Below are positions 3,963-38,414 of a DNA stretch of 64,000 nucleotides, one piece after another. Source of the stretch: Squalus acanthias (lineage: Eukaryota); contig JASTWF010000334.1 in assembly GCA_030390025.1 (NCBI GenBank), positions 434,001-498,000 of the forward strand, in the 5' to 3' direction. The translations under genes and the position numbers were made by a program. Numbering within the stretch: position 1 is the first letter of the stretch; each line of letters begins with the position of its first letter. The notes beneath the pieces are model-generated. The model did no database searches and was not told the DNA's origin. It worked only from the letters and a program-made list of their open reading frames with translations.

Positions 3963-5673
3963 TGTAGAATTCGCAATATATCACGATTTTATAAATAAGG
4001 AGAAAACACATAGTTTCGTTCAAACAGCTTTTATTTCAGCAGAATGCTGTCAGGTTTTCAAAGTGGACACAAGCAGCTTGTAAAATGGCCGCCACGCCTC
4101 GTGGCAGAACATTCTAGACTTTTCGACAGGCAGACAAGATGGCGTTCCAATAAACATTTGTGCAAGATCGATCAAGACTCAGCACATTTAAGATAATACA
4201 CGAGACATCATGGGTTTGCAGTATACACATAAATACTGAAATCGGTCTCCCAGGTGCGAATAAGGGCTATTGTACCAAGTAATCAAGAACCCATCCAAAG
4301 ACATTAATATGCAAAATCCCAACGACTCTACGATGAGAGAGCCGTTAGCGGGTAGTTACAGAAAACATGTGGAAGCCCCAAAACCCCTCCAGGGAGAACA
4401 CCGACCGATTAAACAATGGGAAAAGTATTAACAGGTACTCAGACAATTACGAGTATCCCCGAAACCCATTAAAACGGAGATCACCCTATACAAGAAATTT
4501 GAGCGCCAAACCCTAACAAAAGACAAGACATTAAGGTTGGGCGGGAAAAGGAAGATTTTGCACTATAACTGCAAGCTCCAACCGTCCATCTTTCTCTTAT
4601 CCTCTTATTCGGTTGACTCTTATCCTCGTGGCTGCTCCTGTTGCTCTTATCCTTTCGACTCCTTGCCGCCTGCCTCGTGTCTCTGCCTCTTGCAGCTTTT
4701 AAAGACTGTTGAACTTTACGATCCGCTCGGATCTACCTCGTGGCGTGCCGCGAAGATCTGTGTGGAACTGGGCTCTGAAGCCTTGAAGCGGGCGCACCAT
4801 CCCGAGAAGTCGGTAAACGGTGTTGGAACCGAAGGCCCGAGATGAGATGAGATGAGATGAGATGAGATGAGAAGAGAAGAACACCATACGTATTGCCACG
4901 GTCAGTAAGCTCCGACCGCGCCTGTAGGTCAAATAGACACTTTCCTTGCCAGGAAGACTTCTTCGAGTTTTACAGAACTGCCAGGAAGACTATTCTTCGA
5001 ATTCTATCGCATCAGTGCGAGGGCACAGGAAGACTCTTTTTTGAGCAGTGTCGGAACTCCGAGGACAACACAGATCTTCATGACAGCAGACGGTCCAGCC
5101 TGCTAGCCGGAGCAGAAACGAGTAAACAAGTGGGGTACAGAGACCTCTGATCGACACGTGGGTGCTGCGGTGAAAAACATCCGATCAGAGTTTTCGGAAT
5201 TCTCCGAGTTATCACGAGTGGTGAGCATGAGTCTCGATCCTACAAATCTAGCTTAGGGCAGATATTGATAGGGGAGGGTTTAAGTTTTAAGGATAATTGT
5301 AATGTGTGCCCCCATTTACGATGTGTCGTTCGTTCCTCGTTTCCCTGAAATTAGTTACATAACTGCGTGTAAGATTGTACTGTCATTAATCTGTGCTTAT
5401 GACATGTATTTCGTAATCTTAAATAATATGCAATAAAGATTTTCCATTTCGTACCATTCAACCGGGTCTACCTGAGTTTTACCTCCATTACTGCTCTCGC
5501 ATCTAAGTCCAGTGTCAGAACTGTAAGGGCGAGTGGGTCGAACCACTCACAGGTGTCTAGTGCTCCCAGACTAGCTGGAGACCAGAACAGGCGACAAGGC
5601 CTAACCTCGCACTAGCATCCAGGCTGCACAGAGCCACACGAATCTCACAGGTTCAGAGAGAAAAACCCTTACA
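3963..5673 (+). repeat. Outer provirus 5' LTR (1711 bp)
   Basis: TGTAGAATT...CCCTTACA; near-identical to 24638-26348; TATAA 4564-4568, (GAGAT)n 4839-4872, AATAAA 5432-5437. Confidence 0.97.
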
Positions 5674-5677
5674 GAAA

Positions 5678-7482
5678 ATGGCGACCGCGGCAGGACACTG
5701 GCAGCGAGAGGGTAGTGTGTTGGACTTTGGTGTGAATGTACGAAATGTCATGCAGGAAAAGATAGCAGATTATGTGTTCGGAAAGGTAAATTTAACTAAG
5801 AAATGGATAAGTGACCTGTTAGCGGATAAGAGTCCACTAGAGGCAGCCGAGAGGTGGACAGATAGTAAGGAACATAAAAAGACAGTCGAGAAAGCGGTCT
5901 GGTTAATGTGTTATAAAAGACAAATCCAGATTTCAAACCAGGTCATTACAGCGCAAACAGCTCGGATCAGGCATTTAGAGGAGGAAATGGACGAGAAGGT
6001 CTCTGGAGGGGAGTTGCTCATTAGGAATTTAAGCGCGTTGCACCGAGAACGCCAGGAAATCACCAGTCACCATAAAGCAAAAATAGATTACCTCGAGTGC
6101 CAGGTCACTGAGGCAAAGTTAAGTGAGGGCAGACTAAAGGAACGATGTGCCCGCCAAGCTGCCCAAATAAAAGCCCAGGAAGAGAGCTTAACGGGAGTTA
6201 GGGCGGCATATAAGATGGCTCTTGAGGATAAGTTTCAGGGGGCCGATCATAGCGTCTGCCAAAAGGAGATAGAACACCTTAAAAGGGCCGTGAACAAAGC
6301 GCACGGCATGGTGTGCCTTATCAGTCCATCAGCACACCAGCCACTAGTAGATGAGGAGTTTCAGAAATTCCCACCCAATAAAGCAAAGGAAGTATTAGCC
6401 ACTACGCCCTCCGCGCCACCCAGCTATTCGGAAACCTGGGTAAGGGAGGAAGTAGTAGAAGAAACGAAAGAGCCCACTGAGGGAGAAGTGGAAAAGGGAC
6501 CGTTGTGTTCGGTTACGGGTATCAAAAGGGGCCCAAACGGGAACGGTGGGGAACAAGGGGATCTCCTCAACCAGCTTGTGTTGCCTCACAGCTCACACCA
6601 GCTGAGGGTTATGATAAGTCACGTACGGAAGCTGACCGAATCAGACGACTCTTCCGTACATTTCAGGGAAGTTGAGCAACCGCAGCCATTAACGGCTGCG
6701 ACGATGGGGAAACAGCAAAGATGCTGTTATTTTCATTAGGTAGTTCGATCCTTCAGTGTCTCTCGGACGAGAGCAAGAGAGGAACCAAAAAATATGAGGC
6801 ACTAAAAAATGAGGTCCTAGAAGTATTGGGGACGGACGATGAAGGTCCGTTTGTTAGAGTGGGACAGACAGTGCAGATGGAGGGAGAACCCCCGAAGGTT
6901 TTCGCCGACAGGCTGTGGCCAGTATATCAGCGCAGCTGTCCAGGTGTGCCAGAGCGCGACGATGTGGAAGGCGTCGGTTTAGCTCATTGGCTCAGGTGTA
7001 TAGTAGCCAACAGTTTGCCAGCCGTCAGAGAGCAGGCAAAAGCGTGGTTTGATCCCACTGACCCCAACATTACGGAGGAGTCGGTCTTAAATCGACTCAC
7101 GGTAGGATACCGTAATATCAGGGGTATGGGAACACGTCCCCTTAAGGGAAAGGTACATGAGGTACGACCCGCAGCCCCGGCTCAAAAGGAGTGGCATCAG
7201 GAGGGTAACCGCGCCCCGCAGGCAAGTAATGCTTGTTACGGGTGTGGGAGGACAGGGCACTGGCGCAAGAACTGCAGGAACCCTTGGAAGGATTCCAGGG
7301 ATAAAAATCCCGCAGCCCGAGCCCAGATGCCTGTCTCTGTTAGGGAAGCTAGTGCACCCACCCCTCCCGACGACCTCGAAACAGTGTTGGGAGCCATGCG
7401 CAACTTCATGAGTGCGCATGGAAAAGTGGCGGTTGCTACCGGCCCCGCAGGTGCCACAGGCCCGTCTAACAATACCCAATGA
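5678..7482 (+). pseudogene. gag: gag of outer provirus (1-bp deletion frameshift ~6680)
   Basis: ORFs 5678-6739 and 6721-7482 join into the equivalent of the intact inner Gag (GAGCAACCG vs GAGCAAGCCG); coiled-coil, PSAPPSY, QMEGEPPKVFADRL, zinc knuckle CYGCGRTGHWRKNC. Confidence 0.93.
5679..5696 (+). promoter_or_regulatory. Primer binding site, complementary to the 3' end of tRNA-Arg(TCG)
   Basis: TGGCGACCGCGGCAGGAC is the reverse complement of GTCCTGCCGCGGTCG-CCA, the vertebrate tRNA-Arg(TCG) 3' end (recalled, not searched); starts 5 nt after the LTR. Confidence 0.85.
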
Positions 7483-10400
7483 CTAGAGCCCGCGCAGTCC
7501 GTCTACCTGTGTCCGCTCAGCTATGATGCGTGGAAGCGACCCTTGGTGGAAATGGAGGTAGAGAAACAGAAGGGTAGTTATTTGTTGGACACGGGAGCTT
7601 CTTGCACCGTGATTCATACAGATAGCCCTTTTGACTCACCGCTATCTACCAAGGTCCCATTCACATTAGCGGGGTTCACGGGAAAAGAACAGGCTGGCGC
7701 GTTCTCCCTTCCGCTATCCATTCGTTTGGGAGCACTCCACATCAAGTGGAAGTGCATACTGATGGAATGGCAGGAGGGGGGTGGGAGAGGTATCCTCGGG
7801 TCCGATCTCCTATCAGGACACGGGATCCTCGTGGACCTCAGGAATTACTGTCTCTGGGGGGCTAAGAGTGAAGAAGGCGAGGTAGTGGTAATTCCGGGGG
7901 AGGAAGAAACAGGGGTCCTGTGTACCATGCAGCCATCCGGAGGGTACGACCTCGGGCTTATGGTCGCAGATGTCCCAACGGACATGCAAACGTACGTGTC
8001 AGATAATATGCACGCGTTTGCAACCCACAAGCACGATTGTGGGAGGGTTACCGGGTTTGAGGTCAGCGTAGATGGGGACCCCATGACCCGGCCCCAAAAG
8101 CAGTATAACTTCCCCAAAGAAGCAGAACCCGATATGGAGACAGCAATGTCCTCCTTGGTGCAGCAGGGCGTGTTGAGGCCGATAGCCACACACGTGAACT
8201 CCCCATTATGGCCAGTTAGGAAGCCGGATAATTCGTGGAGGGCCACGGTGGACTACAGAGTCCTTAACAGTAACATTCCCGCCTGCGCGCCCACGGTAGC
8301 AGCAGTTGCTGACCTAATAGGGAGTATCCCAGCGTCCGCGACCACGTTCACGGTGCTGGATATCTCGAACGGTTTTTGGTCCATCCCGCTGCGGCGAGAG
8401 GACCAGTACAAGTTTGCCTTTACTTTCAAAGGACAACAGTACACATGGAACTGTCTGCCACAGGGTTTCCACAATAGCCCCAGTATTTTCCATCAGTGTA
8501 TGGCAGGAAGTTTAAAGGAGTTTAGTCAGCCCAATCAGATAGTGCAGTACGTGGATGATTTGCTCCTATTTACGGATTCAAAGGAGGAGCATGGACTACT
8601 ACTGGCCGAGTTATTGGAGCTGCTAGCGAGAAAGGGTTTCAAAGTAAATCCTAAGAAAGCACGTATCGGTCAGCAGGAAGTAAAATTCCTGGGGCTGACC
8701 ATTCGCGCTGGGGAAAGAGCCATAGATAAAGCTAGGAGGGAGTCGGTGCAAGAGTTACCGATTCCCAACACCATAAGGGGTGTGAGGTCCTTCTTGGGAC
8801 TGACCGGTTACTGCAGGGATTTTATCGAAGACTATGCGGCCACAGCGGCGCCGCTCCTCCGACTCCTCCATAACGGAGTGGAGTGGTCTTGGGACGAGGG
8901 CTGCCAAGCAGCTTTCGAGAAGTTAAAAAGGGATCTGCAGACCGCGCCAGCCTTAGGGGCCATAGATGGGGGGAAGTAGTTTTTCCTGGAGGTAGCTGCC
9001 AGCGGGGACAGCTTGAGCACTGTGCTGCTCCAAGAGCGTTACGGCAAGCTGAGGCCGGTTGTCTATTCGTCCAGGGTGTTAACGGATGTGGAGAGCAGTT
9101 TCTCCAATTGCGAAAGGCACCTTTTAGCCACGCATTGGGCTGTGAAAAGATCAGCGATCTTCACAGGGCTCTCTCCCATCACTCTCCTCACCCATCATAC
9201 ACCAACTAAGATGCTTCTAGACGGGAGAATTAAAGATGGGACCGTAAGCAGCGTGCGCATTGCGCGCTGGACCCTTCTTCTTTCCCAGATGGATCTTAGA
9301 GTAAAAGGTCTTTGCGAGCCCAGGCTTGCGGCCAATTTGGTATACCCCGGTACAGCCCACCGGTGTTCGGTGGAAGGGGTGTGGGACGTCAACATAGGTT
9401 TGCGGGCCGGGATACATCCCACTGGGCGCGAGATTTATGTTGATGGTTCCAGCACAGTATCTGCTGGCGAACGACTCACAGGGTGTGGAGTTTATGACCC
9501 TGCGGCAAACCTTGCCCTGGCGATCAAGCTCCCTAGCACCATGAGCGCGCAGCAGGCTGAGCTGTCTGCAGTGGTGTACGTCGTTACCCACCCAGACATT
9601 TTCCCAACCCCATACACGATTTGCTCGGACAGTATGTTCACATGTAATTCGTGTACGGAATACCTGGCCATTTGGTCCCGCCGTGGATACACCTCCGCGG
9701 ACGGGCGACCTTTAACGGTGAAGCCCTTGCTGGAAAAGATCCTAGCAGCAGTAGGGGAGGAAGGGGAGATTTTCATCCATAAGGTGAAGGCTCACTCCTC
9801 CACAGAGCCCCGTGGGGAGGGCAACCAGCAGGTGGATGCGCTAGCCAGGGAAGGTGCCCACAACGGCATTTTCTGGGACCCCTATGGGACCAGACCCATG
9901 GCAGCGATCCAAGGCAGGGACGGGAATCCCGGGAACACCAGGGTAGCATTGCCCCTAGACCTTAAGACCGTCCAGAACCAGGATCCCACCCTAAAAGCAG
10001 TCCTCAAAACCATTGCTGAGGGGAAGCAGGTAGAGGGTCCGTACAGTACGGCAACCCTCTCAGTTAAGGAAGGCATGCTGTTCCGCGAGGAGCAGTGGGT
10101 TGTGCCGCAGCAGCACAGGAGGGAATTCCTCCAGTTGGCTCACGAGGGACCAGGGGCAGGGCACCCCAGGCCCGAGGTTACCTGGCAACGGGTAGAGCAA
10201 GCGGGATGGTGGCCAGGGCTCAGGGAACAGGTCCGCGAGTTCTGTGCAAGCTGTCTCGTGTGCGCTGCAAACAACCCAGACCCCCAGAAAAGGAAAGTGC
10301 CCATGGGGCATGTAAGAAGGGTAGAGGGACCATGGCAGTCGATACAGATCGACTATATAGGGCCCCTGCCCACCACCCAGGGAGGCTATAAATACTGCCT

Positions 10401-11818
10401 CGTCTTGGTGGATGTGTTTTCCAAATGGGTGGAAGCCTTCCCCTGTCGAACAGCTACGGCACTGGGTACTGCAAAAATCTTGGTCCGGGAAGTATTCTCG
10501 CGGTGGGGACTCCCCCGTTTTGTGGAGTCAGACCAAGGGAGTCATTTCACCGGCCAGGTGATGCAGAACACCCTCATGCTTTTGGGCATTGAAGGGAAAT
10601 GGCACGTAGCGCACAATCCCCAGTCATCCGGGATTGTTGAACGCATCAACCGGACCCTGAAGGAGAAATTGAGGAAAGAGACTAGGAACTCGCCCCAAAA
10701 ATGGGCGGAGGTTCTGCCTTTAGTCCTCATGGGGGTCCGGGCCAGTCAGTCAAAAAGTACGGGGTATTCGCCGCACGAAGTGATGACTGGGAGGATCATG
10801 CGAACCCCCACCCATGTGCTAGCGCCGGTGCTCACTGAGGGTCAGCTCCAAGAGATAAGCAGGGACAAGTTCGCCCAGACCCTCTTGGAGCGCCTGAAGC
10901 AGGTTTATGAGCAGGCGGCTGGGAACATGGGAAGGCAGCATCAGGGCAATCGCCTGTTGCTGGAACCCCGCAAAACGCGGGAGTGGGAAGTAGGAGACCA
11001 GGTTATGGTCAGAAACTACGCCAGAGTAGGGAGTCTGGAACCACTGTATATGGGACCCTACAACATTGTCGATAAGGCGAGTCCCATGGTTTACGCCGTA
11101 AAGGTACCTCGGCGCACTAAGTGGTTCCACGTAAACCAGTGCAAACTGTACAAGCCAGGTGCACAAGGGAAAACCACAGGGGCAAAACCTGCGAGTGGGG
11201 ACTCGCAGCCCCAGGTAGGACCACAAGGCACACAAGCAGGCAAAGCAGCTTGCATCAGGGAAGGAGACATCCTGGAAAATTGTGAAACATTTTTGTGGGG
11301 TTGGGAGTCAGATGAGGGAGAGTTCCAGGAACTCGAGTCAGATGAGGATAGTGATGAGGACGAGTGGGAATCGGGGAACGCAAGGGTCGCCCCCAATTCA
11401 GGTATAGGGAGGACTGGGGCTGCAGATAGAGATCCACACAGGGTGGACACCGAGGCTGCAGGTCCCGCACACAGGAGGGAGGAGCTAGGGGAGGCGGAGC
11501 CAGCCACTGTGGGACCACAGGGCGTGACGGCGGAAACCTCAGAGCCCGAGCCGCCCGCCTTGAACGTCCTGCCCTCGAGGGAGGTAGGGACTGCGAGTGG
11601 AGGTTCGCCTGCTGGGCCGAGCAGGGCGGTGCCACAAGCTGCAGGTCCCGAGGTCAGGGAGGCGGAGTCAGGGGAGACGGAGCCAGCGACTGTGGTGGGA
11701 CCACAGGTCGTCCCGGTGGAAGTCCCGGAACCCGGTCCGTCAGTCCTGGGTTTCCTGCCCCCGACAACTCCTCGTAGGTCAAGTCGGGCACCCCAGCCCA
11801 GGAAGATGTGGTCATGTC
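7483..11818 (+). pseudogene. pol: pol of outer provirus: PR-RT-tether-RNase H-IN plus acidic/Pro-rich tail; in-frame TAG 8977-8979; tail cut by the inner element (resumes 21344 to ~21495)
   Basis: LLDTGAS, LPQGFHNSP, YVDD; degenerate first RH (LEVAAS..RPVVYSSR..RIARW); second RH (YVDGS, SAQQAEL, SDS, KVKAH, GNQQVDALA); IN H..H..CxxC, IDYIG, SDQGSHF, GIVERINRTLK, GPY. Confidence 0.95.
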
Positions 11819-13568
11819 TGTAGAATTCGCAATATATCGCGATTTTATTAATAAGGAGAAAACACAGAGTTTCGTTCAAACAGCTTTTATTTCAGCAGAA
11901 TGCTGGCAGGTTTAAAGTGGACACAAGCAGCCTGTAAAATGGCCGCCGCACCTCGTGACAGAACATTCTAGACTTTTCAACAGGCAGACAAGATGGCGTT
12001 CCAATAAACATTTGTGCAAGATCGATTAAGATTCAGCACAGTGAAGATAATACACGAGACATTATGGGTTTGCAGTATACACATAGATACTGAAATCGGT
12101 CTCCCAGGTACAAAGGAAAGCCATTGTACCGAGTAATCAAGGGCCCATCCAAAAGACATTAATATGTAAAATCCCAACGACTCTACGATGAGAGAGCCGT
12201 TAGCAGGTAGTTATACAGGACACTTGGAAGCCCCAAACCCCTCCAGGGAGAACACCGACCGATTTAACAATGGGAGAAATATTAACAGGTACTCAGACAT
12301 TTACGAGTAGCCCCGAAACCCATTAAGAACGGAGATCACCCATACAAGACATTTGAGCGCCAAACCCTAAACAAAAGAATGGACATTATAGTTGGGCAGG
12401 AAACGGAAGATTTTGCACTATAATTGCAGGCTCCAAACCGTCCATGCTCTTGCTCTTGCTCTTGCTCTTGCTTTTGCTCTTGCTGCTCTTATCATCGTGG
12501 CTGCTCCTGTGCTCTTATCCGATCGATTCGTAAACCTCGTGGCTGCTCCTGTGTACTCGTAGTTGGGCTCGCCCCTGCTTGCCTGTTGCCTCTTCTGAAA
12601 AGACTGTTGAACTTTCTGATCCGTTCGGATCTACCTCGTGTCGCGTAACGAAGACCTATGTTGGTAACTGGCAGCGGAACCGAAGGCCCGAGATGAGATG
12701 AGATGAGATGAGATGAGATGAGAAGAGAGGAAGACCATATCCATCGCCACGGTCAGTAAATCCCGACCGCGCCTGTAGGTCGATTATCCAAGTTTTCCTT
12801 ACTAGGAAGACTTCTTCGAACTTATAACGAAACATATTGCATCGATGATAACTGGACTGTGCCCAAAGTAACTGGAATGTGAAAACATATCGTATCGACG
12901 ATATTGACAACTGTGCTCCAAGAGTACCTGTTAAACCAACCAACACAGGTCTTCATCACAGCAGACGGTCCAGCCTGCTAGCCGGAGCAGCAGAAGCAAG
13001 TAAACAAGTGGGACCAGGAGATCTCCTGACCGACACGTGGGTGCTGCGGTGAAAAACATCCGATCAGCTATTCGGAATTTCTCCGAGTTATCACGAGTGG
13101 TGAGCATGAGTCTCGAAATCCTACGAATCTAGTTTAGGATAGATATTGATAGGGGAGGGTTTAAGGATTAAGGATATTTGTAATGTGTGCCCCTATTTAC
13201 TTTGTGCCGTTCGTTCCTCGTTTCCCTAAGATCGACTATATAACTGTTTGTAAGATTGTACTGTCATTAATCTGTGCTTATGACATGTATTTCATAATCT
13301 TAAGTATCATGCAATAAAGATTTTCCATTTCGTACCATTCAAACCAAGTCTACATGAGTTTCATCTCCATTACTGCTCTCGCATCTAAGTCCAGTGTCTA
13401 GAACCGTAAGGGAGAGTGATTCGAACCACTCACAGGTGTGTCTAGTGTTCCCAGACTGGCTGGAGACCAGAACAGGCAACAAGGCCTAGACCCGCACTGA
13501 CATACAGGCTGCACAGAGCCGCGTGAATCTCACAGGCTGCGAGACACGCACGGTCAGAATCCCTTACA
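11819..13568 (+). repeat. Inner provirus 5' LTR (1750 bp)
   Basis: TGTAGAATTCGC...CCCTTACA; essentially identical to 19590-21339. Confidence 0.97.
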
Positions 13569-13572
13569 GAAA

Positions 13573-15384
13573 ATGGCGACCGCGGCAGGACACTGGCAGC
13601 GAGAGGGTAGTGTGTTAGATTTTGGAATGACTGTACGAAATGTTATGCAGGAAAAGATAGCAGATTATGTGTTTGGAAAGGTTAATCTAACTAAGAAATG
13701 GATAAGTGAATTGTTAGCGGATAAGAGCCCACTAGAGGCAGCTGAAAGGTGGACAGATAGTAAAGAACATAAAAAGACACTTGAGAAAGCAGTCTGGCTT
13801 ATGTGTTACAAAAGGCAGGTTCAGATTTCCAACCAGACCATTACAGCGCTAGTAGCTCGAATCAGTCATTTAGAGGGAGAAATGGAGGAGAAGGTTTCTG
13901 GAGGGGAGGTGCTCATTAAGAATTTAAATGAGTTACACCAAGAAAGCCAGGAAGTCTCCAGTCACCTTAAAACAAGGATAGATTATCTCGAGTGCCAGGT
14001 CACTGAGGCAAAATTGAATGAGAGCAGGTTAAAGGAAAGATGTAACCGCCAAGCTGCCCAGATAAGAACTCAAGAAGAGAGCTTGACGGGGGTTAGGGCG
14101 GCATATAAGTTGGCCCTTGAGGATAAGTTTCAGGGAGCCGATCATAGCGCCTGCCAAAGGGAGATAGAGCACCTCAAAAAGGCCGTGAACAATGCGAACG
14201 GCATGGTGTGCCTTATCAATCCGTCGGCGCACCAGCCGCTAGTAAATGAGAGATTTAGAAAATCCCCACCAAGTAAAGCAGAAGAAGTAGTAGCCACTGC
14301 GCCCTCCGCGCCACCCAGCTATTCAGAAACCTGGGTTAGGGAGGAAGCAATGGAAGAAACAAAAGAGCCCATTGAAAAAGAAGTAGGAAAGGGATCGTTA
14401 TATCCAGTAACGGGTATTAAAAGGGGCCCAAGCAGAAACGGTGGGGAAGAACCGGGGGATCTCCTCGGACAGCTGGTGTTGCCTCACAGTTCACATCAGC
14501 TGAGAGCTATGATAAATCACGTACGGAAGCTGACCGAGGCAGACGACCCTTCCGTACATTTCAGAGAAGTTGAGCAAGCCGCAGCCATTAACGGCTGCGA
14601 TGATGGGGAAACAGCAAAAATGCTGCTGTTCTCATTAGACAGCTCGGTCCTTCAGTGTCTCTCAGGCGAGAGCAAGAGGGGAACCAAGAGTTATGAGGAA
14701 TTAAAGAATGAGGTCCTGGAAGTGTTGGGGGCGAACGACGAAGGTCCGTTTGCTAGAGTGGGACAGACAGTGCAGATGGAGGGAGAACCCCCGAAGGTTT
14801 TTGCCGACAGGCTGTGGCCAGTATATGAGCGCAGCTGTCTAGGTGCGCCCGAGCGCGAAGATGTGGAAGGTTTAGCTTTAACTCATTGGCTTAGGTGCAT
14901 AATAGCCAACAGTTTACCAGCCGTCAGAGAGCAGGCAAAAGCATGGTTTGATCCCAATGACCCCAACATTACGGAAGAGTCGGTCTTGAATCGACTCACG
15001 TTAGGTTATCGCAATATAAGGGGTATGGCAACACGTCCCCTTAAGGGAAGAGTACATGAGGTACGACCCGCAGCCCCGTATCAAAGAGAGTGGCATCAGG
15101 AGGGTAATCGCGCCCCACAGGCAAGTAATGCTTGTTACGGGTGTGGGAAGACAGGGCACTGGCGCAAGCATTGCAGGAACCCTTGGAAGGATTCCAAGGA
15201 TAAAAATCCCGCGGTCCGAGCCCAGGCGCCTGTCCCGGCTAAGGAAGCCAAGGCACCCACCCCTCCCGACGACCTCGAAGCAGTGTTAGGAGCCATGCGC
15301 AAGCTGGTCTTGAATGCGCGTGGACAGGTGGCGGTCGCAACCGGCCCCGTAGGTGCCGCAGGACTGTCTAATAGTACCCAATGA
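13573..15384 (+). CDS. gag: Intact Gag (603 aa), inner provirus
   Basis: Uninterrupted ORF; coiled-coil, PSAPPSY (14302-14322), capsid MHR-like motif, CYGCGKTGHWRKHC knuckle. Confidence 0.93.
   Translation: MATAAGHWQREGSVLDFGMTVRNVMQEKIADYVFGKVNLTKKWISELLADKSPLEAAERWTDSKEHKKTLEKAVWLMCYKRQVQISNQTITALVARISHLEGEMEEKVSGGEVLIKNLNELHQESQEVSSHLKTRIDYLECQVTEAKLNESRLKERCNRQAAQIRTQEESLTGVRAAYKLALEDKFQGADHSACQREIEHLKKAVNNANGMVCLINPSAHQPLVNERFRKSPPSKAEEVVATAPSAPPSYSETWVREEAMEETKEPIEKEVGKGSLYPVTGIKRGPSRNGGEEPGDLLGQLVLPHSSHQLRAMINHVRKLTEADDPSVHFREVEQAAAINGCDDGETAKMLLFSLDSSVLQCLSGESKRGTKSYEELKNEVLEVLGANDEGPFARVGQTVQMEGEPPKVFADRLWPVYERSCLGAPEREDVEGLALTHWLRCIIANSLPAVREQAKAWFDPNDPNITEESVLNRLTLGYRNIRGMATRPLKGRVHEVRPAAPYQREWHQEGNRAPQASNACYGCGKTGHWRKHCRNPWKDSKDKNPAVRAQAPVPAKEAKAPTPPDDLEAVLGAMRKLVLNARGQVAVATGPVGAAGLSNSTQ
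13574..13591 (+). promoter_or_regulatory. Primer binding site (tRNA-Arg), inner provirus
   Basis: TGGCGACCGCGGCAGGAC, identical to the outer PBS. Confidence 0.85.
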
Positions 15385-16377
15385 CTAGAGCCCACGCAGC
15401 CTGCCTACCTGTGTCCTTTTAAAAGACACGCACAGGAGGGGGTCTGCGGTGAGGAGGCCAGGTTAAAAGAGCAGGCCTTGCGGGAGGAGAACGCCCGCTT
15501 AATAGGGAAAATAGATGGGCTGGAAGGGCAGCTTAGAGAGCAGGCCCTGCGGGAGGAGAACGCCCGAGCAATGGGAAAGTTAGACGTGCTCAGGCTAGAA
15601 GCGCAGCTTAGTGAGATAAAAGCAGCCTACAGGGTAGCCAAAAGCCGGGAGTATGAGGATGTAAACCAATGCAAACTGTACCAGCCAGGTGCGCAAGGGA
15701 AAACTACAGGGGTAAATCCCGCCAATGGGAAAGCACAGCCCCAGGTAGGACCACAAGGCACACAGGCAGGCATAGCAGCTTGCATCAGGGGAAGGGACAT
15801 CCCGGACGATCATGCAGCGTTTTTCTGGAATTGGGGGTTAGATGAGGAAGAATTCAGGGTACCCGGGTCAGATGAGGATAGTGCAGATGAGGATAGTGAT
15901 GACGACGGGTGGTTTCGGAGGAACGGTCCCTTTTACGATATGGAGGGGACGGGGGCTGCAGGTAGAGATCCACACAGGGTGGACACACGAGCTGCAGGTC
16001 CCGAAGACAGGAGGGAGGAGCTAGAGGAGGCAGGGCCAGCCGCTATGGGAGCACAGAGAGTACCGGTGTGGCTCCCAGAGATGTGGCCGCCCGCTTTGAA
16101 CGTCCAGTCCTCAGGGGAGGCAGAGATCACGAGTGAAGGGCCGCCTGCTGGGCCGAGCAGGGCGGAGCCACGAACTGCCAGCCCCGAGGTTAGGGAGGCG
16201 GAGTCAGCGGAGGCGGAGCCAGCGACTGTGATGGAACCCCAGGTCATCCCGATGGAAGTCTCGGAACCCGGTCCGTCCGTCACGGAAACCCCGCCCATAG
16301 CAACTCCCCGTAGGTCAAGTAGAGAACCCCAGGAGGATGTGGTCATGTCCCCAGACTGCCCCAAGGCGGAAATTTAA
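15385..16377 (+). CDS. In-frame post-Gag ORF: pol N-terminal stub + novel coiled-coil + integrase C-terminal tail (no enzyme domains)
   Basis: Open from the gag TGA to TAA 16375-16377: LEPTQPAYLCP (pol stub), EQALREENAR x2..IKAAYRVAK, then VNQCKLY.. homologous to outer 11131 onward. Confidence 0.75.
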   Translation, partial: LEPTQPAYLCPFKRHAQEGVCGEEARLKEQALREENARLIGKIDGLEGQLREQALREENARAMGKLDVLRLEAQLSEIKAAYRVAKSREYEDVNQCKLYQPGAQGKTTGVNPANGKAQPQVGPQGTQAGIAACIRGRDIPDDHAAFFWNWGLDEEEFRVPGSDEDSADEDSDDDGWFRRNGPFYDMEGTGAAGRDPHRVDTRAAGPEDRREELEEAGPAAMGAQRVPVWLPEMWPPALNVQSSGEAEITSEGPPAGPSRAEPRTASPEVREAESAEAEPATVMEPQVIPMEVSEPGPSVTETPPIATPRRSSREPQEDVVMSPDCPKAEI

Positions 16378-16628
16378 GGTTAAGATAACCCAGATACAGA
16401 CCGGCCACATCGCAGCAGTAACAGGCTGCGGCAGATCAGAGGGAAGGGTCAGTGCCCTCCCACCGTCGGGAAGAGCTCGCAGCAGCCTTCTCAGAATTTA
16501 AAGGGGCCGCCCTGAGAACGGGTGGCACTGTATAGTAAGTAGTAATAAGTTTAAGTTTATAGTTCAAGGTTAAGTTTTATGTTTTATTAAGGTTAAGTTT
16601 GTCGTGTTTTTTAACAGAAAACGATAAA

Positions 16629-19140
16629 ATGATGGGAGCTTTAAAGATAGGTTTAGTTGAAGTTTATTCAGCGAACGTTGAAGTTTACGTGAGGCGAGGT
16701 CAGGGGACCCGCTCACCCTTCACAAAAGCCAGAGACTCTTGCGAGGCTGGCTACCTCATTCTATCTGATCACAGGAACCAAGGAAGGATGGAACGAATTC
16801 TAGTATTGCTCGTGGCAATCGGATGTGGATTGGCCTATCGAGGCCGCACCAAGGATGTCGTGGTGTTTGGATGTTCCGGGGACACGGCCCCCATCGCGGT
16901 GGATGGGACCGGAAGACGGGAGGCAGAGGAGACCAGCACCTATTTCCACAAGGGAAGGTGGCCAGGATGGCTGGGAACGAACTCAACGGAGTATTCCAGC
17001 ACATCGGGGTTTGCCTACCAAGAGACTTCTTTACTGTGCCCCAAAGTAAGGATCATCGCACCCAGGATCAGCGTCACCGTCGGCAAACGGATTTGTTTGA
17101 CTTGTAGTGGGAAGGTCCCATTGAGCCGATGGTGGTGGCTGCGAAAGCTGAGCAAAACTATGAGGAACTCTTCGGTCGAGTGGGAACGACTGGGTAATAA
17201 TACCCATCGGACAATTACGGGGACAGACGGACAAGTGAAAGTCTGTTGGGACAAATGGTGGGAACCGGATGAGGGAATTTATGTATGTATGTGGGGGTCA
17301 AAGTACGTTTGCCCCAAAGGCATCTCCATATTTTTCATTAATCAATGGCAGGATAACGGACAGGGGATGAGGTGGGATGCGAGCACCAGGGGGTGCGGAG
17401 CCCCATTCTCCCCGATCCCAGTAAATGCCACTGAGCTCATTACGCGCCCACGCAAAGCCCCGCCCACGATTCCGGTGGTTCTAGCTGAGGAAGAAGGGTG
17501 CCCTAAAACTAGTAAGGGACCCGGGAATGGTTTGGTACTGGTCCCCACAGACCAGATACTATTTCAGGGGGTACATTACGCGGTGGCCTCGGTGATTTTA
17601 AATCTCACTGAGGTGCGGTTACCAGAGTGGTGCCCCAAAAAGACGGAACAGTTGTACCAGGTCCTGTTGACCAAGATGTTCAGACAATTTTACGAATTCG
17701 ATTTCGCGGAAATTGATAAAACAAGTTTGTACACCGCACCACAGGAAGTTTTGGATCAAGTAGGGAGGCAAAGAAGGGGTTTGGTGAACGATGCGTTCAC
17801 TGCTTTTAACACAGGTACATCTGTGGTCAACGCTCTAGACAGTGTGGAGCTGCAGACCCAGATTAATGGTTTAAAGACACAATTAAAGGACATTCTAACA
17901 GATGAGAATAAAGTGGTAGGGTCGGGTCTACACGAGGACCAAGCCATGACCCTCCATTTAAAGGAAATTATAGCAGAGTTGGAGAAACATGCAAAGACGG
18001 TAAATGCCCTGATTAGGGAAGATCGGAATGCATCCGATCAAGCTGCGCAGAACGAGGTGTGCGTGCTTTACGGGGCGTGGTTACTGGGCGAGGGCCGCAG
18101 TAATTTGGAGGATTTAAAACAAGGTTTGGTTCCGTCCTGGATAAGTAACAAACACCTACGGGCGCTCCACCCTTTTCAGAACGCATTAAGCCCGTGCCAG
18201 CTCAGGCTAGCTTCAGAAGCATACCCAGTCCCCGTGGACTGTGGACGATCAAACCATACCATCATGGGTATAGTTTTACGTATGCCGGTTTTGGGCGACA
18301 CAGCAAAGCCCGCCCCGGTATATCGGGTAGAAAACATTGGTGTCATTCAGGGGGGGAGCCCACATTCGTTATGCAGCGGTTCCACCTTACGTCATCCGCT
18401 GGGAGCAAACGATGACAGGTACAGATCTCTCTGGTTGTCGTGGCAGGGGAGCACACATAATACTGTGCCCCCAGCACTTGAATGCCTTTTTAACACCACA
18501 GTGCGGGTTCAGAACGGCTGGCGCCAAGTCCATGAATTGCACCATGGAGGCAATGGCACAAGATCATGTGCCTCCGCAGGTAGCATACATCGGGGGTGGA
18601 ACATATTGTGTTACCACTGCAGCGCAACACTACCAGCATGGAAACCGTAGCCGGTGTCCGGTGAGTGACAGCAGTTTCTGTTTTAAACCCAGGGCGGAAG
18701 TTCAAGTAGCACAACAGCGAATTATCCCAATCCCTGAACCATCCACTGTTCATCTCACAGTAAAAGAGAATTTCACCGACTTGCAGCGATTCGTCGCGCA
18801 TTTTGGATACCTCATTCCCCCTCTCCCTGAACACCTCACCAAGCTTTTGAAAGCCGTCGCGGTGTCACAGAAACATTTTTATACATTAGAGCAGAAAACT
18901 GTCGAAATAGGAACAGACATTTTGGATATAGTAGTTCCACCGTGGTGGAATCTGTTCACCAATATTGAAGTACCTTCATGGATCAGAATAGCCTCCCACA
19001 TTTTAGTCGTATGCCAAGTTTTCATTGTAGTGTACCTATTGGTCGTACATTGTAAAAGAGACAAACGCCTCACCAAGCATGAAAACACGGGAGAGTGGCG
19101 AGAACGTTACGTGCGCGTGCACGATGAGAGCACCGTGTAA
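16629..19140 (+). CDS. env: env of inner provirus (one extra G in a G7 run ~18350 shifts frame; mutation or homopolymer error)
   Basis: Signal-like MERILVLLVAIGCGLA (16788), Ig motif, furin RQRR 17766-17777, fusion peptide and heptads, Cys-rich region, TM ILVVCQVFIVVYLLVV; candidate splice acceptor TTTTAACAG just upstream. Confidence 0.88.
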
Positions 19141-19577
19141 TCGGAAAATGGCGTCACTCCCGCTCGCCGCGTGCGCCGCGGAAGTTTGTACTCATATAAG
19201 ATTTTCAGAGATTGTAAATACGTTGGGAACTCGACATGTTAAGAGTTGGTGTTGATTTATTTTGGTGATGGTGTTACAGTTAAAAATGATTGTTTGGTTT
19301 TGGGTTTTGTTTTTCCTTTCCCTGAATAAAAGATGAATATACAGGTGATACGAGAGGCATCGGCCTGGTTACGCCGGGAAGGAAAACAAGTGGTGTAAGT
19401 TTAAGGGCAAATAATGCCTACGGTGATATAAAATGTAATTTTCTTGGGAAATGAGGACGACACAGAGACCCTAGCTAAGTTAAAATTATGGGATTAATTT
19501 ACTGGATTCGGAGAGAAATCGAGATAATATTGCTCACCACTATGATTTTTGATACGATAAGCGGAGTTATTCGCATC

Positions 19578-19589
19578 AACAGGAGGGAC
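19578..19589 (+). promoter_or_regulatory. Polypurine tract, inner provirus
   Basis: AACAGGAGGGAC abuts the 3' LTR; the same sequence is at 24626-24637. Confidence 0.8.
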
Positions 19590-21339
19590 TGTAGAATTCG
19601 CAATATATCGCGATTTTATTAATAAGGAGAAAACACAGAGTTTCGTTCAAACAGCTTTTATTTCAGCAGAATGCTGGCAGGTTTAAAGTGGACACAAGCA
19701 GCCTGTAAAATGGCCGCCGCACCTCGTGACAGAACATTCTAGACTTTTCAACAGGCAGACAAGATGGCGTTCCAATAAACATTTGTGCAAGATCGATTAA
19801 GATTCAGCACAGTGAAGATAATACACGAGACATTATGGGTTTGCAGTATACACATAGATACTGAAATCGGTCTCCCAGGTACAAAGGAAAGCCATTGTAC
19901 CGAGTAATCAAGGGCCCATCCAAAAGACATTAATATGTAAAATCCCAACGACTCTACGATGAGAGAGCCGTTAGCAGGTAGTTATACAGGACACTTGGAA
20001 GCCCCAAACCCCTCCAGGGAGAACACCGACCGATTTAACAATGGGAGAAATATTAACAGGTACTCAGACATTTACGAGTAGCCCCGAAACCCATTAAGAA
20101 CGGAGATCACCCATACAAGACATTTGAGCGCCAAACCCTAAACAAAAGAATGGACATTATAGTTGGGCGGGAAACGGAAGATTTTGCACTATAATTGCAG
20201 GCTCCAAACCGTCCATGCTCTTGCTCTTGCTCTTGCTCTTGCTTTTGCTCTTGCTGCTCTTATCATCGTGGCTGCTCCTGTGCTCTTATCCGATCGATTC
20301 GTAAACCTCGTGGCTGCTCCTGTGTACTCGTAGTTGGGCTCGCCCCTGCTTGCCTGTTGCCTCTTCTGAAAAGACTGTTGAACTTTCTGATCCGTTCGGA
20401 TCTACCTCGTGTCGCGTAACGAAGACCTATGTTGGTAACTGGCAGCGGAACCGAAGGCCCGAGATGAGATGAGATGAGATGAGATGAGATGAGAAGAGAG
20501 GAAGACCATATCCATCGCCACGGTCAGTAAATCCCGACCGCGCCTGTAGGTCGATTATCCAAGTTTTCCTTACTAGGAAGACTTCTTCGAACTTATAACG
20601 AAACATATTGCATCGATGATAACTGGACTGTGCCCAAAGTAACTGGAATGTGAAAACATATCGTATCGACGATATTGACAACTGTGCTCCAAGAGTACCT
20701 GTTAAACCAACCAACACAGGTCTTCATCACAGCAGACGGTCCAGCCTGCTAGCCGGAGCAGCAGAAGCAAGTAAACAAGTGGGACCAGGAGATCTCCTGA
20801 CCGACACGTGGGTGCTGCGGTGAAAAACATCCGATCAGCTATTCGGAATTTCTCCGAGTTATCACGAGTGGTGAGCATGAGTCTCGAAATCCTACGAATC
20901 TAGTTTAGGATAGATATTGATAGGGGAGGGTTTAAGGATTAAGGATATTTGTAATGTGTGCCCCTATTTACTTTGTGCCGTTCGTTCCTCGTTTCCCTAA
21001 GATCGACTATATAACTGTTTGTAAGATTGTACTGTCATTAATCTGTGCTTATGACATGTATTTCATAATCTTAAGTATCATGCAATAAAGATTTTCCATT
21101 TCGTACCATTCAAACCAAGTCTACATGAGTTTCATCTCCATTACTGCTCTCGCATCTAAGTCCAGTGTCTAGAACCGTAAGGGAGAGTGATTCGAACCAC
21201 TCACAGGTGTGTCTAGTGTTCCCAGACTGGCTGGAGACCAGAACAGGCAACAAGGCCTAGACCCGCACTGACATACAGGCTGCACAGAGCCGCGTGAATC
21301 TCACAGGCTGCGAGACACGCACGGTCAGAATCCCTTACA
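19590..21339 (+). repeat. Inner provirus 3' LTR (1750 bp)
   Basis: Direct repeat of 11819-13568, followed by TSD TGTC. Confidence 0.97.
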
Positions 21340-21652
21340 TGTCCCCAGACTGCCCCAAGGCGCAGGCTCAAGGTTAAGGCAGCCCAGGAAGGGCCCAGTC
21401 CCATCGCAGCAGCAACAGGCTGCGGCAGATCAAAGGAAGGGGTCAGTGCCCTCCCACTGTCGGGAAGAGCTCGCAGCAGCCTTCTCAGAATTTAAAGGGG
21501 CCGCCCTGGGAACGGGCGGCGCTGTACAGTTTATAAGTTTCTAGGTTTATAGTTTAAGGTTAAGAATAAGTTTATAGTATTAGATAAGGTTATAAGTTTA
21601 TAGTTTTAAATCAGGTTACGTTTGTAGTTTAATTTTAACAGAAAATGGTAAA

Positions 21653-24190
21653 ATGATGGGAGCTTTAGAGATAGGTTTAGTTAAAGTTTATTCAGCGAAC
21701 ATTGAAGTTTACGTGAGGCGAGGTCAGGGGACCCGCTCACCCTTCACAAAAGCCAGAGACTCTTGCGAGGCTGGCTACCTCATTCTATCTGATCACAGGA
21801 ACAAAGGAAGAATGGAACGAATTATAGTATTGCTCGCGGCAATCGGATGTGGATTGGCCTATCGAGGCCGCACCAAGGATGTCGTGGTGTTTGGATGCTC
21901 CGGGGACACGGCCCCCATCGCGGTGGATGGGACCGGAAGGCGGGAGGCTGAGGAGACCACCACCTATTTCCACAAGGGAAGGTGGCCAGGATGGCTGGGA
22001 ACGAACTCAACGGAGTATTCCAGCACATCGGGGTTTGCCTACCAAGAGACTTCTTTAATGTGCCCCAAAGTAAGGATCATCGCACCCAGGATCAGCGTCA
22101 CCGTCGGCAAACGGATTTGTTTGACTTGTAGTGGGAATGTCCCATTGAGCCGATGGTGGTGGCTGCAAAAGCTGAGCAAAAACATGAGGAACTCTTCGGT
22201 CGAGTGGGAACGACTGGGTAATAATACCCATCGGACAATTACGGGGACAAACGGACAAGTGAGAGTCTGTTGGGACAAATGGTGGGAACCGGATGAGGGA
22301 ATTTATGTATGTATGTGGGGGTCAAAGTACGCTTGCCCCAAAGGCATCTCCATATTTTTCATTAATCAATGGCAGGTTAACGGACAGGGGATGAGGTGGG
22401 ATGCGAGCACCAGGCGGTGCGGAGCCCCATACTCTTCGATCCCGGTAAATGCCACTGAACTCATTACGCGCCCACGCAAAGCCCCGCCCACGATTCCGGT
22501 GGTTCTAGCTAAAGAGGAAGGGTGCCCTAAAACCAGTAAGGGACCCGGGTGCCCTAAAACCAGTAAGGGACCCGGGAATGGTTTGGTACTGGTCCCCACA
22601 GACCAGATACTATTTCAGGGGGTACATTACGCGGTGGCCTCGGTGATTTTAAATCTCACCGAGGTGCGGTTACCAGAGTGGTGCCCCAAAAAGACGGAAC
22701 AGTTATATCAGGTCCTGTTGACCAAGATGTTCAGACAATTTTACGAATTCGATTTCGCGGAAATTGATAAAACAAGTTTGTACACTGCACCACATGAAGT
22801 TTTTGATCAAGTGGGGAGGCAAAGAAGGGGTGTAGTGAACGACGCGTTCACTGCTTTTAACACGGGTACATCTGTGGTCAACGCTCTAGACAGTGTGGAG
22901 CTGCAGACCCAGATTAATGGTTTAAAGACGCAATTAAAAGACATTCTAACAGATGAAAATAAGGTGGTTGGGTCGGGTTTACACGAGGACCAAGCCATGA
23001 CTCTCCATTAAAAGGAAATTATAGCAGAGCTAGAGAAACACGCGAGAACGGTAAATGCCCTGATTAGGGAAGATCGGAATGCATCCGATCAAGCTGCGCA
23101 GAATGAGGTGTGCGTGCTTTATGGGGCGTGGTTACTGGGCGAGGGCCGCAGTAATTTGGAGGATTTAAAACAAGGTTTGGTCCCGTCCTGGATAAGTAAC
23201 AAACACCTGCGGGCGCTCCACCCTTTTCAGAACGCATTAAGCCCGTGCCAGCTCAGGCTAGTTTCAGAAGCATACCCAGTCCCCGTGGACTGCGGACGAT
23301 CAAACCATACTATCATGGGTATAGTACTACGTATGCCGGTTTTGGGCGACACAGCAAAGCCCGCCCCGGTGTATCGGGTAGAGAACATTGGTGTCATTCA
23401 CGGGGGAGCCCACATTCGCTATGCAGCGGTTCCACCCTACGTCATCCGCTGGGAGCAAACGATGACAGGTACAGATCTCTCTGGTTGTCGTGGCAGGGGA
23501 GCACACATAATACTGTGTCCCCAGCACTTGAATGCCTTTTTAACACCACAGTGCGAGTTCAGAACGGCTGGCGCCAAGTCCATGAATTGCACCATGGAGG
23601 CAATGGCACAAGATCATGTGCCTCCGCAGGTAGCATACATCGGGGGTGGAACATATTGTGTTACCACTGCAGCGCAACACTACCAGCATGGAAACCGTAG
23701 CCGGTGTCCGGTGAGTGACAGCAGTTTCTGTTTCAAACCCAGGGCGGAAGTTCAAGTTGCACAACAGCGAATTGTCCCAATCCCTGAACCATCCACTGTT
23801 CATCTAACAGTAAAAGAGAATTTCACCGACTTGCAGCGATTCGTCGCGCATTTCGGATACCTCATTCCCCCTCTCCCTGAACACCTCATCAAGCTTTTGA
23901 AAGCCGTCGCGGTGTCACAAAAACATTTTTACACACTGGAGCAGAAAACTGTCGAAATAGGGACAGACATTCTGGATATAGTAATTCCACCGTGGTGGAA
24001 TCTGTTCACCAACATTGAAGTGCCTTCATGGATCAGAATAGCCTCCCACATTTTAGTTGTATGCCAAGTGTTTATTGCAGTGTACCTATTGGTCGTACAT
24101 TGTAAGAGAGGCAAACGCCTCACCAAGCACGAAAACACGGGAGAGTGGCGAGAACGTTACGTGCGCGTGCACGACGAAAGCACCGTGTAA
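21653..24190 (+). pseudogene. env: env of outer provirus (nonsense TTA>TAA at 23009-23011)
   Basis: ORFs 21653-23011 and 23108-24190 share a frame; colinear with the inner env; 27-bp duplication GCPKTSKGP x2. Confidence 0.92.
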
Positions 24191-24625
24191 TCGGAAAATG
24201 GCGTCACTCCCGCTTGCCACGTGCGCCGCGGAAGTGTTGTACTCGATCGTGATTTTTCAGAAACTGTAAATACGTTTGGAACTCGACATGTTTAAGAGTT
24301 GGTGTTTGATTATTTTGGTGATGGTGTTGTAGTTAAGAATGATTGTTTGGTTTTGTTTTGTTTTTCCTTTCCCTAAATAAAAATATGAATATACAGGTGA
24401 TACGAGAGGCATCGGCCTGGTTACGCCTGGAAGGAAAACAAGTGGTGTAAGTTTAAAGGCAAATAATGCCTGCGGTATTATAAGAATGTAATTTTCTTGG
24501 GAAATAAGGACGACGCAAAGACCCTAGATAGTTTAAGTTATGGGATTAATTTTCTGGATCTGGAGAAATCGAGATATATTGCTCACCACAATATTTTTGA
24601 TACGATAAGCAGAGTTATTCGCATC

Positions 24626-24637
24626 AACAGGAGGGAC
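24626..24637 (+). promoter_or_regulatory. Polypurine tract, outer provirus
   Basis: AACAGGAGGGAC directly before TGTAGAA. Confidence 0.8.
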
Positions 24638-26348
24638 TGTAGAATTTGCAATATATCACGATTTTATAAATAAGGAGAAAACACATAGTTTCGTTCAAAC
24701 AGCTTTTATTTCAGCAGAATGCTGTCAGGTTTTCAAAGTGGACACAAGCAGCTTGTAAAATGGCCACCACGCCTCGTGGCAGAACATTCTAGACTTTTCG
24801 ACAGGCAGACAAGATGGCGTTCCAATAAACATTTGTGCAAGATCGATCAAGACTCAGCACATTTAAGATAATACACGAGACATCATGGGTTTGCAGTATA
24901 CACATAAATACTGAAATCGGTCTCCCAGGTGCGAATAAGGGCTATTGTACCAAGTAATCAAGAACCCATCCAAAGACATTAATATGCAAAATCCCAACGA
25001 CTCTACGATGAGAGAGCCGTTAGCGGGTAGTTACAGAAAACATGTGGAAGCCCCAAAACCCCTCCAGGGAGAACACCGACCGATTAAACAATGGGAAAAG
25101 TATTAACAGGTACTCAGACAATTACGAGTATCCCCGAAACCCATTAAAACAGAGATCACCCTATACAAGAAATTTGAGCGCCAAACCCTAACAAAAGACA
25201 AGACATTAAGGTTGGGCGGGAAAAGGAAGATTTTGCACTATAACTGCAAGCTCCAACCGTCCATCTTTCTCTTATCCTCTTATTCGGTTGACTCTTATCC
25301 TCGTGGCTGCTCCTGTTGCTCTTATCCTTTCGACTCCTTGCCGCCTGCCTCGTGTCTCTGCCTCTTGCAGCTTTTAAAGACTGTTGAACTTTACGATCCG
25401 CTCGGATCTACCTCGTGGCGTGCCGCGAAGATCTGTGTGGAACTGGGCTTTGAAGCCTTGAAGCGGGCGCACCATCCCGAGAAGTCGGTAAACGGTGTTG
25501 GAACCGAAGGCCCGAGATGAGATGAGATGAGATGAGATGAGATGAGTAGAGAAGAAGACCATACGTATTGCCACAGTCAGTAAGCTCCGACCGCGCCTGT
25601 AGGTCAAATAGACACTTTCCTTGCCAGGAAGACTTCTTCGAGTTTTACAGAACTGCCAGGAAGACTATTCTTCGAATTCTATCGCATCAGTGCGAGGGCA
25701 CAGGAAGACTCTTTTTTGAGCAGTGTCGGAACTCCGAGGACAACACAGATCTTCATGACAGCAGACGGTCCAGCCTGCTAGCCGGAGCAGAAACGAGTAA
25801 ACAAGTGGGGTACAGAGACCCCTGATCGACACGTGGGTGCTGCGGTGAAAAACATCCGATCAGAGTTTTCGGAATTCTCCGAGTTATCACGAGTGGTGAG
25901 CATGAGTCTCGATCCTACAAATCTAGCTTAGGGCAGATATTGATAGGGGAGGGTTTAAGTTTTAAGGATAATTGTAATGTGTGCCCCCATTTACGATGTG
26001 TCGTTCGTTCCTCGTTTCCCTGAAATTAGTTACATAACTGCGTGTAAGATTGTACTGTCATTAATCTGTGCTTATGACATGTATTTCGTAATCTTAAATA
26101 ATATGCAATAAAGATCTTCCATTTCGTACCATTCAACCGGGTCTACCTGAGTTTTACCTCCATTACTGCTCTCGCATCTAAGTCCAGTGTCAGAACCGTA
26201 AGGGCGAGTGGGTCGAACCACTCACAGGTGTCTAGTGTTACCAGACTGGCTGGAGACCAGAACAGGCGACAAGGCCTAACCTCGCACTAGCATCCAGGCT
26301 GCACAGAGCCACACGAATCTCACAGGTTCAGAGAGAAAAACCCTTACA
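24638..26348 (+). repeat. Outer provirus 3' LTR (1711 bp)
   Basis: Direct repeat of 3963-5673, followed by TSD GGCA. Confidence 0.97.
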
Positions 26349-30188: not shown

Positions 30189-30592
30189 ATTATCTTTGTT
30201 TTCACTACAAAAAGCAGATTCCAGGCAACTAACCTTGTACGTTGAGTGTTAGAGAAAGTTGGCTAATGGGCCACCAGTTCTTCAGTTTTCTGTATTCTTA
30301 CCACATCATTGTACTCACGCCTGTCAGGCACATACTTTCCATCACAGCACCCACTTTTATTCATAGGCTGATCTGTTAAACAGGTTAATTCAATGAGTAG
30401 AGCACTCAATGTGCTGATCTGTACACAAACAGCAGTCTTGGCCAGTTCACAAGGGGTGAGAAAAAAGAATCAAAGTTGAGGTGAGTTTTTGTACGCAGAT
30501 TGACATGGAGAACTCAGCTTTGTTGCTGTTGTGAGGTCATTTATTTCTTTCTACATTGGACCCTGGTCCTGGGGTGATGCTGTTGGCACTGA

Positions 30593-38407: not shown

Positions 38408-38414
38408 TCCTCCC

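Follow-up and report, generated by a model that had tools for sequence, protein, structure and literature searches.

A predicted immunoglobulin-like domain as the likely attachment head of an F-/foamy-type envelope protein in a snakehead-retrovirus-like element of Squalus acanthias

The env genes of two endogenous retroviruses (ERVs) in Squalus acanthias, one inserted in the other, encode an N-terminal domain that we predict to be an immunoglobulin (Ig) V/I-type β-sandwich and that likely serves this snakehead retrovirus (SnRV)-like element as the built-in attachment head of an F-/foamy-type fusion protein. Both lie on the forward strand of a 64,000-nucleotide stretch (the window: assembly GCA_030390025.1, contig JASTWF010000334.1, positions 434,001 to 498,000), with the features below; Env residues are numbered from the ATG at 16788 (residue 1).

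3963..26348 (+): outer element, split by the inner one; broken gag, pol, env
3963-5673 and 24638-26348 (+): LTRs of the outer element; 13 mismatches, target duplication GGCA
7483-11823 (+): outer pol, with protease, RT, tether, RNase H and integrase; one internal stop
11819..21339 (+): inner provirus-like element; gag from 13573, pol almost wholly deleted, env
11819-13568 and 19590-21339 (+): LTRs of the inner element; 1 mismatch, target duplication TGTC
13100..16774 (+): putative GT..AG intron of env; donor within the 5' LTR, acceptor just ahead of the env ATG
16788..16844 (+): env start codon and hydrophobic signal-like peptide, by hydropathy; preceded at 13 bases by a splice acceptor
16845..17036 (+): conserved segment of the head ahead of the Ig domain (Env 20-83, including C29); pLDDT under 50
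17037..17339 (+): predicted Ig-like domain, inner env copy (Env 84-184); C106, W115-117, DEGIYVC
17340..17498 (+): segment behind the Ig domain, with C203, and variable stalk rich in Pro/Thr (Env 185-237); lowest identity
17499..19140 (+): F-/foamy-like fusion core, starting at the conserved CP motif (C238); RQRR, heptad region, transmembrane helix
17766-17777 (+): furin-type site RQRR, inner copy
about 19000-19044 (+): transmembrane helix, inner copy
21812..24190 (+): outer env copy; in-frame stop at 23009-23011
22061..22363 (+): predicted Ig-like domain, outer env copy; 94% amino-acid identity with the inner domain

A sequence-only reading of the window had proposed an Ig-like domain in both env copies on the strength of three motifs, and each was located where it had been placed. 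In the inner copy, VTVGKRICLTC terminates at C106 (17103-17105; B strand), with a second Cys, C103, at 17094, while WWW spans residues 115-117 (17130-17138; C strand) and DEGIYVC residues 161-167 (17268-17288; F strand). The outer copy has the identical Cys/Trp/DxGxYxC pattern at an offset of 5024 bases. Further conserved cysteines of the domain are at 84, 103, 153 and 175, and its E-F region is atypical (WDKWW). The same reading put the domain between the signal-like peptide and the fusion module, and it does lie there, residues 4-18 being hydrophobic and the core starting at C238, but not directly, since a 64-residue segment precedes it and the Pro/Thr-rich stalk follows. As a chance control, the pattern C-x(8-17)-W-x(35-65)-[DE]-x-[GA]-x-Y-x-C, formulated only after the sequence had been inspected, was confined to the two env copies when every open stretch in the six frames of the window (36,951 residues) was considered, and arose in 14 of 20,000 shuffles of Env 1-236.

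We consider an Ig fold of this domain very probable. The only or best Pfam family on the window domain was Ig_3 (E 0.017), which also matched five relatives (E 0.0006-0.023), in all cases at 16-21 bits, under the curated cut-off of 30. Nine of the ten best family-bearing matches in the ESM atlas share family or clan with the top one, an Ig cluster (0.92-0.93), with two unnamed sets ranking above the Ig clusters; the top phmmer matches in the PDB were JAM-A and antibody light chains (E 0.3-1). An AlphaFold model from a 29-row alignment has the Ig strand order, with a mean pLDDT of 42 and core strands at 50-72. The best 50 Foldseek matches listed for it were all, judged by their description or size, chains of antibody/TCR type (prob 0.85-1.0, E 0.017-0.068), none at E 0.001 or better, and the best 50 listed of 48,161 representatives compared by VIA were all Ig-superfamily or antibody chains (rmsd 2.5-5.2, 76-92 aligned) at Z 5.4-6.1, values below 8 that may reflect a common arrangement and are insufficient alone to prove kinship. 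A single-sequence model (pLDDT 42) gave fold matches to generic sandwiches only, the profile of the natural-row alignment (A2) had 0 matches in the PDB, and a BFVD search with the domain returned no useful match. Because in the alignment-based model the pre-Ig segment, itself of low confidence, supplies the first strand, and the G strand goes unaligned, the domain boundaries are unsure. Checked by Pfam, AlphaFold and Foldseek, the earlier Ig assignment is favoured by top fold matches that are all Ig V/I, and left short by sub-threshold Pfam scores and the pLDDT of 42. Within this fold, C106-C167 is predicted to be the canonical B-F disulfide. In the V-set register as we take it to be, C103 and C153 would face outward on adjacent B and E strands and C84 and C175 would lie on A and G, giving putative additional disulfides C103-C153 (B-E) and C84-C175 (A-G).

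It is quite improbable that the domain is instead a generic β-rich viral one, in which the Ig pattern is coincidental and CLTC is an isomerase motif of the gamma-type CXXC kind. Such a reading would accommodate the low model confidence, the Pfam scores, the WDKWW E-F region and the CXXC itself. However, sequence, language-model and fold searches all indicate the Ig superfamily, the pattern is as infrequent in shuffles as given above, and Ig-like heads occupy the same place in three other Env lineages (see below). The isomerase reading of CLTC moreover fails because, although this CXXC is present, the Env stretches scanned have no CX6CC, its partner in the transmembrane subunit.

Conservation supports the motifs as a unit. 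In A2 (29 natural rows, 50-94% identical to the window copy, with two fragments at 47% and 37%), C103 and W117 are present in 29/29 rows and C106 in 27/29, and G163 and C167 in all 27 rows that reach the F strand. The F-strand acidic residue is D in seven rows and E in 20, and the signature is therefore [DE]xGxYxC. Conservation of the Cys/Trp/DxGxYxC pattern in related Envs, on which the Ig proposal had been made to depend, is thus near-invariant, with D often E. The domain is conserved in skate, sawshark and whale-shark relatives and in all sampled subfamilies, and is under purifying selection: its dN/dS was 0.10-0.19 in 6/6 unsaturated between-subfamily pairs (of eight pairs, which are not independent), comparable to that of the fusion core, while the segment behind it (Env 185-237), the Env part of lowest identity, gave 0.30-0.57, with 0.37-0.57 for its Pro/Thr-rich stalk. 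Between the two window env copies the Ig-domain dN/dS was 1.7, a value resting on very few changes.

These data bear on whether the domain was captured recently from a particular shark gene, or is a functionless post-integration fusion, a reading that is largely refuted and that we regard as scarcely credible. Host captures into Env have been published, of SIRP-like domains (bioRxiv 10.1101/2024.03.17.585361) and of nectin3 in crocodilian ERVs (PMC4299795); here and below, statements on published systems refer to the parts of each source available to us. Against a recent event, the domain is present throughout the subfamilies and relatives just named, under purifying selection, is in frame in 17 of the first 20 listed copies, these having open frames over 800 codons, and finds no donor among the 60 host domains tested.

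The full order of Env is signal peptide, head with the Ig domain, Pro/Thr stalk and F/foamy-like core. The head bears three N-glycosylation sequons and six further conserved Cys in and around the domain. In the PDB the core profile matched foamy virus Env best (8rm1, E 0.008), PF00523 matched the outer-copy core weakly (E 0.054), and Baculo_F matched the relative P0047 (E 0.001). Env also has the class Ib features of a signal peptide, a furin site ahead of the fusion peptide and a transmembrane anchor. The resemblance, weak but consistent, suggests that the core is homologous to F0/foamy Env and hence a class Ib fusion protein. The inner copy is disrupted by a frameshift near 18340, downstream of the Ig domain. 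Its start at 16788 is supported by a splice joint, 13099 to 16775, that falls 13 bases ahead of the ATG in one contig of run X1, a run whose RNA nature is only guessed; depth over env was raised in contigs of runs likewise only guessed to be RNA.

We know of no account of how deep-branching fish and amphibian retroviruses find their cells. Since this element lacks a separate attachment gene, binding must reside in Env, and two parallels lead us to place it, provisionally, in the head: gamma-type SU has a parallel layout, in which a signal is followed by an Ig head, a proline-rich stalk and the core, and F is described as a minimal scaffold taking receptor-binding modules N-terminally or internally (PMC11468914). 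After signal cleavage, furin cleavage at RQRR would leave the head on the surface subunit, where, held out by the Pro/Thr stalk, it could bind a host surface protein, upon which the core would refold and fuse the membranes. The head is strongly conserved with no hypervariable loops, which also fits a structural role. There is a small chance that the domain is a disulfide-rich cap stabilising or shielding the prefusion trimer, with receptor binding elsewhere: its six additional conserved cysteines, its sequons and its core-level conservation would suit a cap, but a variable stalk tethers it and relatives with the same core lack it or carry another module in its place. An attachment head remains our preferred reading, and the makeup of these relatives informs it further.

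A search of 1.84 billion representatives returned 48 matches to a natural open-frame Env copy; longer homologues were sought and none found, and scans of viral and metagenome contigs yielded no relatives. The distant matches align only from the CP motif (C238) onward, and the related Envs of sharks, frogs and coelacanth have a common core and differing heads. Chiloscyllium P0016, whose automatic UniRef name is 'Ig-like domain-containing protein', has another Ig-like head (antibody VH matches, E 0.004) on the same core; Pelodytes P0023 may have a third Ig-like type (ESM atlas 0.88; a lead only); and Lithobates P0054 and its relative P0038 have a fourth, without the B-F cysteines (V-set, E 0.0015). 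Residues about 14-137 of P0038/P0054, the latter from a cluster of 14 members, have the look of a CEACAM/SLAM-type V domain, and of all the heads this frog one offers the best prospect of tracing a capture back to the host. Mustelus P0015 and Pristiophorus P0025 carry a Cys-rich head with no Pfam match, whereas in P0040 and coelacanth P0048 the signal peptide runs directly into the core, so that the core can evidently work without a head. Gene models P0005, P0011, P0014 and P0047 have env-family pieces fused to host Niban, zinc-finger, cadherin and F-box sequences, and are probably annotation artefacts of intronic insertions. The S. acanthias genome itself holds further F-core Env families (L066, L069-L073, L079, L090) with very different heads, some Ig-like and P0016-related and some neither; RTs of the three checked are 40-61% identical to the window RT over aligned pieces.

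The variety of heads also bears on a decoy role, in which the Ig domain would sit on virions and infected cells and engage host immune IgSF receptors while the core performs entry. We give this a minor though appreciable likelihood. CEACAM/SLAM N-domains are among the weak PDB matches of the frog type-D head (E 0.24-0.62), the headless Envs show that a head can be dispensed with, and Hotzel (bioRxiv 10.1101/2024.03.17.585361) proposes that newly gained receptor-binding domains (RBDs) begin as accessory binders. On the other side, unrelated non-Ig modules occupy the slot in co-resident families, which an attachment slot fits better. Immune mimics, besides, usually retain recognisable similarity to the host protein, whereas none of the 60 host Ig domains tested is close.

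As to origin, the suggestion that a captured Ig domain had been placed on an F-type core held for the conserved V/I-like domain ahead of that core, but not for an identifiable donor: among 60 host V-/I-set domains of this genome, a small sample, there was no close one, the best match being weak (z up to 5.9), and any capture is therefore ancient. The Ig head types are barely alike (pairwise z -0.7 to 4.3). Ahead of the F strand, the window type (A) and a second type (B) have W-x-x-[WF]-W in common (27/28 and 7/7 rows, against 0/60 host Ig domains), a motif picked after the fact, and on this ground the gain is probably old. Their profiles match over 71 columns at E 0.011, a weak match since it is no better than that of A to host I-set (E 0.004, 35 columns) or to the Cys-rich head (E 0.015, 15 columns). 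An Env-core tree (16 rows) has three Ig-label changes, with 313 of 500 shuffles equally low, and fits a single ancient gain with losses or several gains. We conclude that the domain was probably gained long ago and then diverged or was replaced in other lineages. A broader proposal, which we put forward tentatively as somewhat less than an even prospect, is that SnRV-like retroviruses of sharks, rays and amphibians possess a minimal F-type core whose head can be exchanged, and that host IgSF domains (at least two to four Ig types, one CEACAM/SLAM-like) were taken up into it repeatedly as receptor binders.

The ERV family is young and very abundant, with 6091 env candidates in the 3.7 Gb genome and 99-100% identity over Env 1-238 in all 150 matches scored; older subfamilies are also present. 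At least half of the 31-mers sampled from window positions 16500-17700 occur in 14 runs under six organism labels, and near-identical env copies are thus common to several species labels. Copies of the inner type recur at about 7.7 kb spacing (C7:29046441, 29054163; C16:35636846, 35644597, 35652343), which suggests a non-autonomous family that retains env and is arranged in tandem. At 1.7 kb the LTRs are of unusual length, and the env splice donor appears to lie within them. The gag ATG lies 5 bases past the 5' LTR and overlaps the TGG of a putative primer-binding site (5674-5695; 13569-13590), and in both elements the gag stop (7480-7482; 15382-15384) has an in-phase pol frame beyond it, an arrangement that by analogy may be that of stop read-through retroviruses. 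Elsewhere in the window, a 23-base satellite forms long arrays in opposite orientations (about 30570-31140 and 38360-46000); the 64 kb contain no tRNA genes.

Dual RNase H (tether plus RH; RT_RNaseH and RNase_H matches) in the window pol is a trait common to all retroviruses. In PDB searches the window RT scored 189 bits with MLV, 186 with foamy virus, 128 with Ty3 and about 60 with HIV. The F-like Env had initially led us to a lokiretrovirus assignment, which was dropped: in the RT alignment of PMC9040795, compared by eye and with no tree, SnRV was nearest among the references compared (about 88/174 columns identical, against about 64/174 for Loki-Bsp), and xPFGYxNS, IFLHKAM and K[GA]QW, motifs of all five Loki RTs shown, are absent from the window RT. 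By eye, PTVA, LPQGFH, IFHQ, QYVDD and NPKK are common to the window and SnRV RTs. By this comparison the RT appears snakehead-retrovirus-like and not lokiretroviral.

Among known systems, SnRV-like ERVs have been described from elephant shark, as CmiERV lineage I (PMC4422223), and as clade Huo, related to class III (PMC6001957); in the parts of these two sources available to us we located nothing on the fold of Env in SnRV or clade Huo, nor any mention there of an Ig head. Lokiretroviruses (PMC7947760) were found in none of three chondrichthyan genomes screened, and 'immunoglobulin' is absent from the accessible part of that paper's supplement. Their F0-like Env resembles the window Env in its signal peptide, basic cleavage site, fusion peptide, coiled coil and transmembrane region, and their pol, like the window pol, has dual RNase H. 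F-like Env appears not to be restricted to loki and foamy viruses. Foamy Env and paramyxo-/pneumovirus F, of class Ib, share with the window Env the furin site, heptads and transmembrane region. The foamy RBD, however, is a large insert of non-Ig fold, whereas the window module is N-terminal and Ig-like, and paramyxovirus F works with a separate attachment protein, of which the window element has none. F domain II is Ig-like too, but lies inside the core and is distinct from the window domain, and the coronavirus spike resembles the window Env in the N-terminal position of its receptor-binding module. These likenesses extend the class Ib idea of an F scaffold plus add-on module to retroviruses other than foamy viruses, with a head slot that is modular throughout an entire Env family and, here, a head that offers a candidate receptor-binding domain, small and soluble, in a family that is very young and present in high copy number.

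CrocERV31 (PMC4299795), an ERV outside classes I and II, likewise has IgSF sequence where env would lie, but there a whole host nectin3 mRNA (about 76% identical) replaces env, while the window Env joins a single diverged domain to a fusogen. An N-terminal Ig-fold RBD in gamma-type Env, and capture of SIRP-like domains, are already known; we found no print record of an F-type core that bears Ig in an exchangeable head, nor any published report of an Ig head on an F-type retroviral Env, in a search whose coverage excluded most subscription papers, Repbase entries and bioRxiv supplements. 'Immunoglobulin' occurs 0 times in the main texts of PMC9040795, PMC12440569, PMC13709493, PMC12193657, PMC4422223 and the errantivirus preprint, and 'shark' nowhere in the available part of bioRxiv 10.1101/2024.03.17.585361. 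The latter provides the closest parallel: gamma-type Envs (MLV, FeLV, Env-Pb(1)) have an N-terminal IgV-like RBD-C with a proline-rich region, and SIRP-like IgV capture and RBD swapping are reported for gamma- and alpha-like Env. There, as in the window Env, an IgV-like module is followed by a proline-rich linker and the rest of Env, and the modules are lineage-specific and exchangeable. In contrast to gamma-type Env, however, the core described here is F-/foamy-like, without CX6CC or a gamma-type transmembrane subunit; the Ig domain retains the B-F cysteines that RBD-C lacks; and, compared with the SIRP-like RBD, it has no close host donor among the 60 domains tested and belongs to viruses of sharks, rays and amphibians. 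This suggests that Ig heads became attached to two unrelated retroviral fusion machines, and repeated recruitment, if true, would mean that the gammaretroviral layout of an Ig RBD plus a proline-rich stalk had been invented a second time, independently and on a fusion machine unrelated to the first.
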